Source of the DNA: Clostridia bacterium
GTDB lineage: Bacteria; Bacillota; Clostridia; Christensenellales; UBA1242
Assembly: GCA_045534265.1 (NCBI GenBank)
Contig: JAZSJH010000005.1
Span: 86,234-150,233, forward strand
Length of the DNA stretch: 64,000 nucleotides
Direction: 5' to 3'
A program made the position numbers and the translations under genes. Positions 13,176 to 31,116 of this stretch are shown here, piece after piece (within the stretch, counting starts at the first letter, position 1; every line of letters starts with the position of its first letter). The notes under the pieces are model-generated. The model had not been told where the DNA came from, searched no databases, and saw nothing but the letters and a program-made list of their open reading frames with translations.

Positions 13176-13335
13176 ATTTTGCCTCTCAAAAATATGTTTT
13201 TTTATACGCTTTGATTATATCACAAATAAAATAAATGTTAAGTAAATAAGAGCTAGTTTTTAGCTCTTTTTTTGTGGAAAAGATAATTTTATAAAAGTTT
13301 TTTTTGAGCAAAAAAAATATAGTATGCCAAAACAT

Positions 13336-13365
13336 TTGACAAAAAGGCAGGGGGGGGGGTAAACT
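13336..13365 (+). promoter_or_regulatory. promoter TTGACA-18-TAAACT with a G10 tract in the spacer
   Basis: TTGACA 13336-13341. G10 at 13350-13359 abuts TAAACT at 13360-13365. Conserved with 29570-29601. Confidence 0.55.
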
Positions 13366-13430
13366 AGGTGTAAGGATAGGTGTGTCTTGTATAAGTCATA
13401 CCAATATTGTGGACAAAGGAGAAAATATAT

Positions 13431-14678
13431 ATGGCACTAGTTCCAGCAAAATGTACCCAATGTGGCGCTTCTATTGAAGTTGATAAAACTCAAGAAGCGG
13501 GCATTTGCCCATCTTGCGGTACAGCATTTATTACCGAAAAAGTAATAAAAAATTATAACACCTTTAATGTAGACAATTCCGTTAATATTTATCTTGGCGG
13601 AAAGGGTGATAGCAAAAAAGAAGAAAGAAATGACGCAATAAGAGGTCTTATTGTTTCGCTAGATTATACTGATAAGGTAGATAGTTATAAGAGAATTAAA
13701 AAAATATTAGACAAATATCCAGGCTCAGCCGAAGCTCACTATTCTTGCGCTTTAGCGATAGCTGAGCTTATGACAAGAGATATGACCAAAGACACATACT
13801 TTGGGGAAATGCCGGATTATGAGATGTACCTTGACGAGGTAGACGGCAAAGATGTTTATATCAAAATATCTTATCCGATAGGGCTTATCGACAAAGCAAA
13901 GAAACTAGCAAAAAATGAAAAAGAAAAACTAGAAGTACTTCAAGCAGAGCAAGAATTTTACCAAATAATTACTTGCAAACTACATAAGTTATACCTTGGC
14001 ACATCAAAAGCTGATGAATCAAAAAGCCCAGAAACTGCACAAAATATTGTAAAAGAAGCAAACGAAAGAATGGACGAAAATCCTAGCAAAAAAATAAAAT
14101 TTGACCCGTTTTTCTGGTTTTTGAATCCTTGTGGTAAGTATAGTTTTGAATTTATTAATCTATTTAATGATATTGCAATAATTTTAATTCCTTTCTTTAT
14201 CGTAGCTATGTGTATACCTGTAGCAAGAGAGTGGCTACTTGCTAGATGGTTTTTGTTTGGCATAATAGCACTTGTTTGTCTTTTTGGACTTTATATGTTC
14301 TTTAGTTGCCTAAAAGATGAGATTAGTCATTTAATGCTTCACAATTCAAAAGCTTTGAGAAATGCAGATGCTGAGTATGCAAAAGATTATAATAGCATAA
14401 TCGAAAATGTCGAATTTAGAGAAGATAAGTATTGGTATGCTTTGGTGCTTGGGGTTGAAGGCTCTGTTAAACTTTATGAAGTTTTGAGACGACTTGAAGA
14501 AGATATCAAGAAAAAGAAACTAAATGTCACTGATGTAGATTGGAAATTTGTTTATGAACAATCATATTGCATTATGGAAAATAGAGGCTTAAGTTGGCAT
14601 GATGAGAAAATACTAGATATTATCGAAGAAAACATTAAAAAATATAACTTAGAAAAAATCTTGCCTAAAAAGAAATAA
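13431..14678 (+). CDS. zinc-ribbon membrane protein, paralog A
   Basis: AAGGAG RBS then ATG at 13431 (track start 13407 is a TTG). N-terminal CxxC...CxxC ribbon (CTQCG...CPSCG), helical region, TM helices, C-terminal domain. Paralogous to 29666..30931. Confidence 0.7.
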   Translation: MALVPAKCTQCGASIEVDKTQEAGICPSCGTAFITEKVIKNYNTFNVDNSVNIYLGGKGDSKKEERNDAIRGLIVSLDYTDKVDSYKRIKKILDKYPGSAEAHYSCALAIAELMTRDMTKDTYFGEMPDYEMYLDEVDGKDVYIKISYPIGLIDKAKKLAKNEKEKLEVLQAEQEFYQIITCKLHKLYLGTSKADESKSPETAQNIVKEANERMDENPSKKIKFDPFFWFLNPCGKYSFEFINLFNDIAIILIPFFIVAMCIPVAREWLLARWFLFGIIALVCLFGLYMFFSCLKDEISHLMLHNSKALRNADAEYAKDYNSIIENVEFREDKYWYALVLGVEGSVKLYEVLRRLEEDIKKKKLNVTDVDWKFVYEQSYCIMENRGLSWHDEKILDIIEENIKKYNLEKILPKKK

Positions 14679-28155: not shown

Positions 28156-29376
28156 TTAATAAAACTCATCATCATCTTGAGTTCGTATTAAGTTTTCGGT
28201 ATTAAGTAGAAGCGCTTTTTTTATGCCGATATCACCATATTTTTCTCTTATTTTGTCAATGCTTTTTTCTTCATTGGTCTTTTTTGTGTCGATTTTTGTC
28301 GAAGAAAACAAATCAAGTTGCCTGTCAAAGTCATCACTCAAAAGGTTAGAGCAAGCCACTCTCATAGATCTTATTGGCGTGCCTGTTTTCCAGTTTGATT
28401 TGTATATTTTGATAACCGCATCAAAAAGGTCTTTTGTATGACAAACAGGTGACGGGAAGGTTTTGCTAAATGATACCCACTTAAGAGAGCTGTCTCTTAT
28501 AGATAGGGTAATAGTAGAGCCGCAAAGAGATTTTTTTCTCATACGGCTGCTTATGCTATCGCAAAGAAAATACGCAATTTTGCGAAAGTCGTCTTCGGAT
28601 GTAATGTCATAAATAGCAGTTGTTCCGTTACCTATGCTCTTGATTGCTGTATTGTCATCAAAGTATGCAACTTCAGTTTCATCTTTGCCGTTTGCTATAT
28701 CAATAATTTCCTTTCCGCCTACGCCAAAATAGTGGGTTAGGACTTTTTCGTCTGCCATAGCCAAATCTTTGCAGGTGATAATATTTAATTTTTTCAAAAC
28801 TTCATTTCGGCTTCTTCCTACAAACATAAGGCTATTTGCAGGGAGTTTCCAAACAATGTCTTTGAAATTTTCTTTGGTTATTTCTGTCGTTCCGTCTGGT
28901 TTTTTAAGATCGGAGCCGAGCTTTGCAAACATTTTACAAAAGCTCACCCCAACGGAGATTGTAAGCCCAAGCTCTTTTTTGACAGTCTCTCTTAATGTAT
29001 CTGCAATCTGTCTTCCTGAGCCAAAAAGTTTTGTGCTATGTGTTACATCAAGCCAACACTCATCAAGACCAAAAGGCTCAACCTTGTCTGTATATCTAAG
29101 ATAAATCTCACGGACTTTTTTAGAATAAACTGCGTATTCTTCGTGGTGTGGGGCTACGCAAATAAGGTCAGGGCATTTTTGCTTGGCTTTCCATATTACA
29201 TCACCAGTTTGTACGCCCATTGACTTTGCTAAAGTATTCTTTGCAAGTATAATGCCTGTTCTTGTCCTTGGATTGCCTGATACAGCAAGTGGCTTTCCGG
29301 CAAGCTCTGGGTGGCGCAAACACTCAACTGATGCATAAAAGTTATTCAAATCACAATGCAAAATAACTCTTTCCAT
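28156..29376 (-). CDS. dinB: DNA polymerase IV (Y-family)
   Basis: ILHCDLNNFYASVE N-terminus. The ATG at 29376 follows AGGAGAAA. The track start at 29457 is an upstream extension. Confidence 0.9.
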   Translation of the reverse strand: MERVILHCDLNNFYASVECLRHPELAGKPLAVSGNPRTRTGIILAKNTLAKSMGVQTGDVIWKAKQKCPDLICVAPHHEEYAVYSKKVREIYLRYTDKVEPFGLDECWLDVTHSTKLFGSGRQIADTLRETVKKELGLTISVGVSFCKMFAKLGSDLKKPDGTTEITKENFKDIVWKLPANSLMFVGRSRNEVLKKLNIITCKDLAMADEKVLTHYFGVGGKEIIDIANGKDETEVAYFDDNTAIKSIGNGTTAIYDITSEDDFRKIAYFLCDSISSRMRKKSLCGSTITLSIRDSSLKWVSFSKTFPSPVCHTKDLFDAVIKIYKSNWKTGTPIRSMRVACSNLLSDDFDRQLDLFSSTKIDTKKTNEEKSIDKIREKYGDIGIKKALLLNTENLIRTQDDDEFY

Positions 29377-29569
29377 TAATTTTCTCCTATGCTTAGTATA
29401 GACCTTTTTTGCTTGTTTATCAAATAACTTTTGATAGTAAAAATTTGCAAGTGACATTTTTGGGACATATCAAAAAAATCATATTATTCAAAAAAATGCA
29501 GCTAAATATGTGCATAACTATATTTTTATTGAGATTTGTTTTTTTATTCAAAAAACTGCCCTTAAACAT

Positions 29570-29601
29570 TTGACAAAAATGCACGGGGGGGGGGGTAAAC
29601 T
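29570..29601 (+). promoter_or_regulatory. promoter TTGACA-20-TAAACT with a G11 tract in the spacer
   Basis: TTGACA 29570-29575. G11 at 29585-29595 abuts TAAACT at 29596-29601. Homologous to 13336-13365. Confidence 0.5.
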
Positions 29602-29665
29602 AGGTGTAAGGATAGGTGTACCTTTTGTAAGGTATGCCTAATTGTGGACAAAGGAGAAAAAATAT

Positions 29666-30931
29666 ATGGGATTAGTTCCTGCAAAATGTACAATGTGTGG
29701 TGCGTCTATAGAAGTAGACCCTAGTCAAGAAGCTGGCATATGTAAGCATTGTGGTACGGCATTTATTACCGAAAAAGTAATTAATAATTATAATACAATC
29801 AATGTAGATAAATCTGTGAATATTTATCTAGGCGGTAAGGGTGATAGCAAAAAAGAAGAAAGAGATGATGAAATAAAAGCCCTTATGGTGTCACTAGATT
29901 ATACAGACGAAGTAGACACATACAAAAGAGCTCAAGATTTGGTAAAACAATATCCAGGCTCTGCAGATGCTCATGTAGCAGCGGCTTTTGCTATTGGTGA
30001 GCTTATGACAAGAAATTTAGAAGGGGTATATATTGACGACATAGTCGACTACGAAATGTATTTTAATGAAGTTGATGGAAAAGATGTGTTTATAAACATA
30101 TCTTATCCATTGGGACTACTTGACAAAGCCAAAAAGTTTGTAAAAAATGAAAACGAAAAACAAAAAGTTATCAACGCAGAAAAAGACTTCCATCAAAAGA
30201 TTGTTTGTAGATTGTATGAGTATTACATTAGGTCTAATAGACTTGGACCAAATAGAGATAAAATCTTAAAAGAAGCCCCTATGTCTGTAGAAAAAATACT
30301 ATCAAGGATAAATCCGCCTGAAGATAAACCTAAACCAACACAAACAATTACTGAACCAAAGAAAAAAGCAAAATTTAACTTTTTCAATTGTTTTATTGGG
30401 GCATCAAATACAATAGATTGGACTATGATAGCTTCTGTGTTACTTGTTATTGGTTTTATTGTTTGTATGTGTTTGCCTGTGGTTAGAGAATGGTTGCTTG
30501 TTAGATGGTTTTTGTTTAGTGTAATTGTTGTATTTGTTCTTTTGTCTTTGTGGACTATTATTTATGCGATAAAAACCGAATTAGACATTATTTATGTAAA
30601 GAATAATTGTGAAGAAAAAGATCCAAACAAGTACGACCCTGACGATTATACAAGAGAAAAATTGATGACATTTGATGTAATACTTACAAAAGATAATTAC
30701 ATCTATGCTATGATTCCTTATGTTGATGATACCGTTATGATTTATCATATTATAAGAAGAATTGCAGAAGACTTAAAAACAAAAGCACTAAAGACAGAAG
30801 ATGTAGATTGGAATTTTGTTTATTCTCAAGCACGTTTGGCTTTAGAATTTGCCACTGACAAAAAGAAATATTCAAACGAAGAGATTTTTGCATACATCAA
30901 AAAACAAAAAAACAAATACAAACTAAAATAA
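29666..30931 (+). CDS. zinc-ribbon membrane protein, paralog B
   Basis: AAGGAG RBS then ATG at 29666. Same architecture as 13431..14678 and high N-terminal identity to it (CTMCG...CKHCG ribbon). Confidence 0.7.
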   Translation: MGLVPAKCTMCGASIEVDPSQEAGICKHCGTAFITEKVINNYNTINVDKSVNIYLGGKGDSKKEERDDEIKALMVSLDYTDEVDTYKRAQDLVKQYPGSADAHVAAAFAIGELMTRNLEGVYIDDIVDYEMYFNEVDGKDVFINISYPLGLLDKAKKFVKNENEKQKVINAEKDFHQKIVCRLYEYYIRSNRLGPNRDKILKEAPMSVEKILSRINPPEDKPKPTQTITEPKKKAKFNFFNCFIGASNTIDWTMIASVLLVIGFIVCMCLPVVREWLLVRWFLFSVIVVFVLLSLWTIIYAIKTELDIIYVKNNCEEKDPNKYDPDDYTREKLMTFDVILTKDNYIYAMIPYVDDTVMIYHIIRRIAEDLKTKALKTEDVDWNFVYSQARLALEFATDKKKYSNEEIFAYIKKQKNKYKLK

Positions 30932-30945
30932 AATTATATAAATAA

Positions 30946-30977
30946 TAAAAACACCTAAAAGTTAGGTGTTTTTTTTG
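30946..30977 (+). terminator. intrinsic terminator
   Basis: ACACCTAA/TTAGGTGT stem (30951-30958/30962-30969) followed by T8. Confidence 0.65.
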
Positions 30978-31045: not shown

Positions 31046-31116
31046 TTGACAGGTCGGGGACAATTGTTTTATAATATAAAGGTCAAAGAAAGTCAAACTT
31101 TTTACAAAAGGTCAAA
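31046..31116 (+). promoter_or_regulatory. ctsR-clpC promoter (TTGACA-18-TATAAT) followed by CtsR heptad boxes
   Basis: TTGACA 31046-31051. TATAAT 31070-31075. GGTCAAA-gaa-AGTCAAA at 31081-31097 and a third GGTCAAA at 31110-31116. Confidence 0.65.

Follow-up and report, generated by a model that had tools for sequence, protein, structure and literature searches.

A poly-G promoter spacer as the probable variable element of an expression switch at a zinc-ribbon membrane protein gene in uncultured Clostridia

Here we report that a run of 11 G residues between the -35 and -10 boxes of a gene for a zinc-ribbon membrane protein (copy 2) is probably the variable element of a slipped-strand promoter switch, with copy 2 now weak or OFF at a spacer of 20 nt and a paralogue 16.2 kb away (copy 1) ON at 18 nt. 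That copy 2 slips, that it is OFF at present and that it switches independently of copy 1 we infer from comparisons of promoters within this genome and among its relatives. The window, that is, the whole stretch of 64,000 nt that was analysed, is C8:86234-150233 of the source genome (G000; 1.2 Mb, 33% G+C, nine contigs). In a switch of this kind, gain or loss of G residues during replication would alter the distance between the two boxes, and a promoter with a perfect TTGACA and a weak TAAACT lacking a TG extension would need that distance to be correct. The cassette of promoter and leader would be functional at 17-18 nt; copy 1, at 18 nt, would be in the expressing state, while at 20 nt the zinc-ribbon protein gene of copy 2 would be transcribed weakly or not at all and could return to ON through the loss of two or three G residues (G9 or G8). 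Copy 2 would have been made switchable when a copy-1-type poly-G cassette displaced an ancestral fixed 17-nt promoter. That the ON length lies two to three slippage steps from the present copy-2 state, and not one, counts against the proposal.

The homopolymer sits between the -35 and -10 boxes of the copy-2 promoter, 64 nt 5' of the ATG, and the elements of this promoter are as follows.

29570-29575, plus strand: -35 hexamer TTGACA, read in the sequence
29576-29584, plus strand: AAAATGCAC, the 9 nt of the spacer outside the repeat, read in the sequence
29585-29595, plus strand: non-template-strand G11 homopolymer directly abutting the -10 hexamer, the presumed slippage tract
29596-29601, plus strand: -10 hexamer TAAACT, with 4/6 matches to TATAAT and without a TG extension

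The spacer, AAAATGCAC plus G11, is 20 nt long, and the region from 29567 to 29619 reads CATTTGACA AAAATGCAC GGGGGGGGGGG TAAACT AGGTGTAAGGATAGGTGT. Runs of at least eight G residues occur in the window at the copy-1 and copy-2 promoters only, giving seven overlapping G8 matches against 0.09 expected from shuffles. Sigma-70-type promoters with a weak -10 box and no TG extension rely on the -35 box, and hence on spacing; since the copy-2 TAAACT is both weak (4/6) and without a TG extension, this promoter would be dependent on both the -35 box and its distance. Both hexamers of a sigma-A promoter (TTGACA and TAnnnT) are there, spaced by 20 nt and not by 17±1 nt, and a promoter scanner covering 16-18-nt spacers made no call at copy 2. 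There is no -35-like hexamer 17 or 18 nt 5' of TAAACT, where ACAAAA and GACAAA stand, and the other plus-strand promoter candidates 5' of the copy-2 ATG were two 9/12 matches at shuffle level.

29451-29479, plus strand: promoter-like candidate, 9/12, shuffle-level score in the promoter scan
29460-29487, plus strand: promoter-like candidate, 9/12, shuffle-level score in the promoter scan

The gene itself lies in a predicted monocistronic unit with an intact set of expression signals.

28156-29376, minus strand: Y-family DNA polymerase gene, upstream of copy 2 and divergent from it
29608-29665, plus strand: putative 5' leader of about 58 nt, its transcription start predicted from the sequence
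29613-29640, plus strand: leader stem-loop (fold -15.7 kcal/mol, z = -3.7)
29653-29656, plus strand: Shine-Dalgarno sequence GGAG
29666-30931, plus strand: copy-2 gene (P0001), 421 aa, ATG at 29666
30947-30973, plus strand: predicted intrinsic terminator ending the monocistronic copy-2 unit

As the upstream polymerase gene is divergent, no read-through from it into copy 2 is expected; downstream, the ctsR-clpC operon has a perfect TTGACA-18-TATAAT promoter of its own. Hairpins are found at the same position in the leaders of copy 1 (13379-13402), copy 2 (29613-29640), L018 and L009, with stem sequences that differ and include a double compensatory change (A-T versus G-C), and the structure is probably a 5' stabilising stem-loop; Rfam held no family matching the copy-2 leader. 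Just 3' of the -10 box and just 5' of this hairpin stands a conserved direct repeat, TAGGTGT-N5-TAGGTGT. Two other motifs were seen in the vicinity. Upstream of the polymerase gene, at 29446-29470, the GACAT direct repeat GACATTTTTGGGACAT, kept in the source genome, L014 and L016 and degenerate in G004, may be an operator for a damage-inducible polymerase, and in the ctsR promoter region (31046-31110) the promoter is followed, as judged by eye, by a putative CtsR-operator-like direct repeat, GGTCAAAGAAAGTCAAA and then AAGGTCAAAA.

Copy 1 has the same promoter design at a different spacing.

13336-13365, plus strand: copy-1 promoter with an 18-nt spacer (TTGACA, AAAAGGCA plus G10, TAAACT)
13336-13341, plus strand: TTGACA of copy 1
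13350-13359, plus strand: G10 of copy 1
13360-13365, plus strand: TAAACT of copy 1, with the ATG at 13431
13431-14678, plus strand: copy-1 gene (P0002), 415 aa, sharing 45% identity with copy 2

Similarity between the copies begins abruptly at 13330 and 29564, which is 6 nt 5' of the -35 box, and amounts to about 88-92% identity over promoter and leader, with the flanks CATTTGACAAAA and TAAACTAGGTGTAAGGATAGGTGT common to both. An earlier note on this DNA had given copy 2 the same TTGACA (29570-29575) and TAAACT (29596-29601) as copy 1, a 20-nt spacer with G11 at 29585-29595 against 18 nt in copy 1, and nearly the same flanks; the hexamers and both spacers are exact in the sequence, and the flanks agree to the extent just stated. 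Its overall picture, a promoter of the sigma-A type holding a G tract that looks hypermutable, survives, apart from the statement that the paralogues differ 'mainly' in spacer length, which does not hold because the proteins are only 45% identical; moreover, half of the 2-nt gap between the spacers is non-repeat. The non-repeat part is 8 nt in copy 1 (AAAAGGCA) and 9 nt in copy 2 (AAAATGCAC), so that the tract accounts for one base of the gap and an extra non-repeat C for the other.

The length at which the cassette is likely to work can be gauged from its orthologues. We traced those of copy 1 in five lineages by synteny (epimerase, the gene, CYTH, reverse transcriptase), and their spacers are as follows.

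Source genome (G000): AAAAGGCA plus G10, 18 nt
P0011 lineage: AAAGGCAA plus G10, 18 nt
G004: AAAGGCAATGTGGGTGGG, 18 nt
L083: AAAGGCAATGGGGGTGGG, 18 nt
L081/L082: AAGGTGTCGGGGGGTGGG, 18 nt

The predominant spacer is 18 nt in all five lineages, with 17 nt in two contigs that carry G9, and the hexamers are invariant across the five except for one SNP in a -35 box. Pure G runs occur in the source genome and in the P0011 lineage, and elsewhere the run is interrupted (GTGGGTGGG, GGGGGTGGG, GGGGGGTGGG), the pure and interrupted forms being one or two T/G substitutions apart at constant length. As all five lineages agree in this, 18 nt appears to be the conserved functional length of the copy-1 cassette; and since that length is kept with pure and with interrupted runs alike, it is length, and not G purity, that seems to be conserved. 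The interrupted runs of the sister lineages suggest how a locked promoter might be made slippery by one or two T-to-G changes.

Variation in tract length itself is seen in the P0011 sister lineage. Among ten contigs from different samples, all encoding the identical copy-1 orthologue P0011, the promoter tract is G10 in eight and G9 in two (one JGI and one ENA assembly). Where the flanks were compared, they are identical between G9 and G10 contigs, the -35 SNP of L020 aside. In L020, a JGI contig with a G10 tract, TTGACG replaces TTGACA, and this may be a point-mutational route to lower activity of a poly-G promoter.

Spacer use by the ordinary promoters of the source genome is narrow. Perfect TTGACA-Nx-TATAAT matches genome-wide number five at x = 16, 20 at x = 17, six at x = 18, none at x = 19 and one at x = 20; the optimum is a sharp 17±1, and 20 nt does not rise above background. 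The contention of the earlier note that 20 nt is far from the optimum is borne out by these counts, and its suggestion that copy 2 is probably OFF or weak is still the best inference. A spacer outside the used range, a cassette otherwise kept at 18 nt and the lack of an alternative -35 box or of read-through together point to a copy 2 that is OFF or weak.

That assemblies can misjudge the length of a homopolymer by one base also counts against the proposal. Runs of 10 or more identical bases are prone to error, contig C3 of the same assembly ends in such a tract, and many sites in the wider family lie close to contig ends; the 20-nt spacer could accordingly be a sequencing or assembly miscall, with a true majority of G9-G10 (18-19 nt) and a copy-2 state no different from that of copy 1. 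We consider this very unlikely. With one G fewer the spacer would still be 19 nt, through the extra non-repeat C, and still unlike that of copy 1; the copy-2 tract lies midway in a 290-kb contig, not at its end; and ambiguous reads at the tract would themselves indicate heterogeneity of length.

For the slippage switch that we favour, the comparison available is with sister lineages. When P0001, P0002, CtsR and the Y-family polymerase (with either of two starts) were looked up as exact proteins, nothing matched and no second genome of the species emerged; the best matches to the neighbouring polymerase reach only 91% identity, so no conspecific strain was found with which to compare the copy-2 tract. 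Scans of metagenome DNA yielded 0 matches to the leader word and 0 to the degenerate cassette pattern, in a collection that does not return the JGI contigs bearing the latter pattern. Loss of mismatch repair was considered as a cause of slippage and ruled out: MutS and MutL are both encoded in the source genome, so no repair defect is raising slippage rates, which counts against the switch.

The copy-2 gene seems to have acquired its poly-G promoter in this lineage. Orthologues of copy 2, identified by synteny (polymerase, the gene, ctsR-clpC), are 67-69% identical (P0003-P0005) and have fixed 17-nt promoters without poly-G (TTGACA-17-TACTAT, -TATTAT or -TAAAAT) and an unrelated leader; the orthologue in G004, of the same genus, likewise has a fixed promoter without poly-G. 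The P0070 lineage lacks the gene, and there the polymerase gene directly adjoins ctsR. The corresponding segment of copy 2 is the following.

29564-29669, plus strand: promoter and leader cassette, 88% identical to that of copy 1 (13330-13434) and absent from copy-2 orthologues elsewhere

Since the orthologues carry fixed 17-nt promoters without poly-G, the most parsimonious reading is that, in this lineage, copy 2 lost its ancestral fixed promoter to a cassette of poly-G promoter and leader of the copy-1 type, a seeming exchange of a fixed promoter for a switchable one. Throughout its length, N-terminus included, the coding sequence of P0001 has its nearest counterparts in the copy-2 orthologues P0003-P0006, which rules out gene conversion of the copy-2 coding region by copy 1. 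The polymerase-ctsR locus, which we compared between the window (29458-29665) and L014-L017, L033 and L069-L078, is variable in the genus, being empty, occupied by a zinc-ribbon gene with a fixed promoter, occupied in addition by a TMEM164-like gene, or, as here, provided with a poly-G promoter; the TMEM164-like gene adjoins the copy-2 orthologue in G004 and L017.

A history of cassette copying also allows for a real tract that is no longer a switch, the spacer having drifted to 20 nt after the copying so that a decaying paralogue is silent or constitutively weak. One of the two extra spacer bases of copy 2 is indeed non-repeat, and the locus is dispensable in the genus, as its absence from the P0070 lineage indicates. 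Yet the 421-codon frame is intact and retains its ribosome-binding site, leader hairpin and terminator, an uninterrupted G11 is the kind of run that slips most readily, and shorter runs (G9/G10) already vary in the sister lineage. We regard such decay as unlikely, and retain a slippage switch as the explanation for the copy-2 promoter.

P0001 has an N-terminal zinc ribbon with invariant CxxC-x14-CxxC, a helical region, two adjacent hydrophobic helices at about residues 250-314 and a C-terminal helical domain; its middle and C-terminal parts are fast-diverging (45% identity between the paralogues, 67-69% between orthologues). Comparison with Pfam, NCBIfam and PADLOC gave no family above threshold and sub-threshold zinc-ribbon matches only. 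The AlphaFold model is poor (pLDDT 64, pTM 0.39), and against the PDB this poor model gave no fold match with E < 0.01 and only a vague TPR-like similarity. Because it combines a zinc ribbon with a hairpin of two helices, the protein is likely to be mostly cytoplasmic and tethered to the membrane. It does not look like a classic surface antigen, which is a point against a switch. The zinc-ribbon module of about 40 residues (M-x-LV-x-AKCTxCG…GxCxxCGT-x-FITEKVI) is found on many Clostridia proteins at 64-82% identity, and the C-terminal parts of these proteins are quite different (LRR_5/LRR_8, TPR). Two viral contigs carry a 39-residue zinc ribbon and have nothing else in common with P0001.

Copy 2 is not alone in its genome. 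Runs of G or C of at least 10 number only eight in the source genome, including one cut by a contig end.

C8:27336: G11, 17-nt spacer, collagen/SGNH lipoprotein
C4:47538: G11, 18-nt spacer, DUF6273 lipoprotein
C8:99583 (copy 1): G10, 18-nt spacer, zinc-ribbon membrane protein
C4:109866: G10, 19-nt spacer, third zinc-ribbon paralogue
C8:115818 (copy 2): G11, 20-nt spacer, zinc-ribbon membrane protein
C5:238995-239006: C12 on the gene strand, 15-nt spacer (TTGACC…TATGAT), 1394-aa lipoprotein about 50 nt downstream
C8:206785-206794: G10 within a frame of 283 codons, at present intact, for a TMEM164-family membrane protein
C3:100415-100437, end of C3: at least G7, TATTTGACAAAAAGCA plus G7…, the contig ending in the tract

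At least six of these are promoter-spacer tracts, lying before three lipoprotein genes and three genes of zinc-ribbon membrane paralogues. Several loci upstream of lipoprotein and membrane-protein genes, as far as product predictions go, are what is found for contingency genes. The unrelated lipoprotein gene at C8:27336 has the core (C/T)ATTTGACAAAAAG…G(n)TAAACT before it as well, and this core stands at the end of C3, where the assembly probably broke on a tract that was heterogeneous or difficult to read; the gene driven from there is missing from the assembly. The tract at C5:238995 is a poly-C version of the poly-G promoter design, and the TMEM164-family gene at C8:206785 is a candidate frameshift-type phase-variable gene.

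The design extends well beyond this genome. Scanning 121 genomes of the same family for TTGACA-N4-10-G>=9-N0-4-TAnnnT returned 126 sites, in 40 of the 121 genomes and 31 of 58 genera; the reversed control pattern had 0 matches in the same genomes and a version with at least nine C residues had two sites only. The G run is flush with the -10 box at 99 of the 126 sites, and its length between loci is 9 to 15. Spacers range from 13 to 23 nt, with 11 of the 126 at 17 nt, unlike the ordinary promoters of the source genome. Downstream products are mostly predicted to carry a signal peptide or lipobox. Some genomes have 10-12 poly-G promoters, 12 being the maximum per genome, and for many sites the end of the contig is no more than about 100 nt away. 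In several genomes nearly all the tracts are exactly G9 (for example 10/10 sites in G086 and 14 sites in G104/G061), a uniformity that may partly reflect the search threshold of at least nine or the behaviour of assemblies; more scatter would be expected if the loci switched freely and independently, and the uniformity is thus a point against the switch.

The same uniformity, together with the bias of strand and position (126 G-run against two C-run sites, 99/126 flush with the -10 box) and the conserved TAGGTGT repeat just downstream of that box, would suit a G run that acts as a fixed element (a protein-binding site, a G-rich -10 context or structure-forming DNA), with a regulator and not slippage setting expression. 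Orthologous promoters with interrupted runs of equal total length are hard to square with this, the run length varies both between strains (G9/G10) and between loci (9 to 15), and no regulator gene is linked to the copy-2 locus. We judge a fixed element distinctly improbable, and continue with slippage as the more plausible origin of the length differences. On that basis we suggest, tentatively and with slightly less than even confidence, that copy 2 is one case of a lineage-wide, undescribed contingency system in a family of uncultured Clostridia with genomes of about 1 Mb. Its stereotyped unit would consist of TTGACA, 6-9 A/T-rich bases and a non-template run of at least nine G residues flush with the -10 box, serving up to 12 genes per genome and nearly absent in C-run form, and it could be transplanted before other genes, as at copy 2, making a constitutive gene switchable.

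If this is true, bacteria with reduced genomes would stochastically diversify their envelope and membrane proteins. The interpretation of metagenome-assembled genomes, strain tracking and community expression data would be affected, and the tracts could add to contig breaks at poly-G sites.

In a few pathogens, namely Neisseria, Haemophilus, Bordetella and Mycoplasma, phase variation by way of promoter-spacer homopolymers belongs to textbook knowledge, and our literature search found no report of a promoter-spacer homopolymer switch in uncultured Clostridia. In Neisseria meningitidis and N. gonorrhoeae, promoter phase variation is described for porA (poly-G) and for fetA/frpB and opc (poly-C), where the length of the homopolymer in the spacer determines how far apart the -35 and -10 boxes stand and how they face each other, and hence the level of transcription (van der Ende 1995 and Carson 2000, cited in PMC5320596). 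The promoters studied here resemble porA, fetA and opc in having a homopolymer between -35 and -10, a tract length that differs between strains, here at the copy-1 orthologue of the P0011 lineage, and a mismatch-repair-proficient host. They differ in belonging to uncultured, low-G+C Clostridia and, at copy 2, to a zinc-ribbon membrane protein, whereas Neisseria is a Gram-negative pathogen switching outer-membrane products; and in consisting almost always of non-template G flush with the -10 box, whereas Neisseria uses both G and C runs.

Mycoplasma, like the present lineage, is a low-G+C Firmicutes relative with a small genome. In M. hyorhinis each promoter of the vlp lipoprotein family has a poly-A tract, and the genes switch separately and give combinatorial expression (Citti and Wise 1995, summarised in PMC10502178). 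Here too, paralogues each have their own promoter homopolymer, but the tracts are poly-G and scattered before unrelated genes, with the two paralogues 16 kb apart, whereas vlp combines poly-A with clustered lipoprotein genes and size-variable repeats. Slippage in poly-G has also been described for the pilus of Bifidobacterium breve UCC2003 (PMC9187656). That case shares its slippage-driven ON/OFF action with the switch proposed here and concerns a gut commensal rather than a pathogen. The B. breve tract reportedly belongs to the coding sequence, where it works by frameshift, and not to a promoter spacer. Our comparison suggests that the mechanism at copy 2 would be a known one, that of Neisseria porA/fetA and Mycoplasma vlp, and that the lineage would be new for it.
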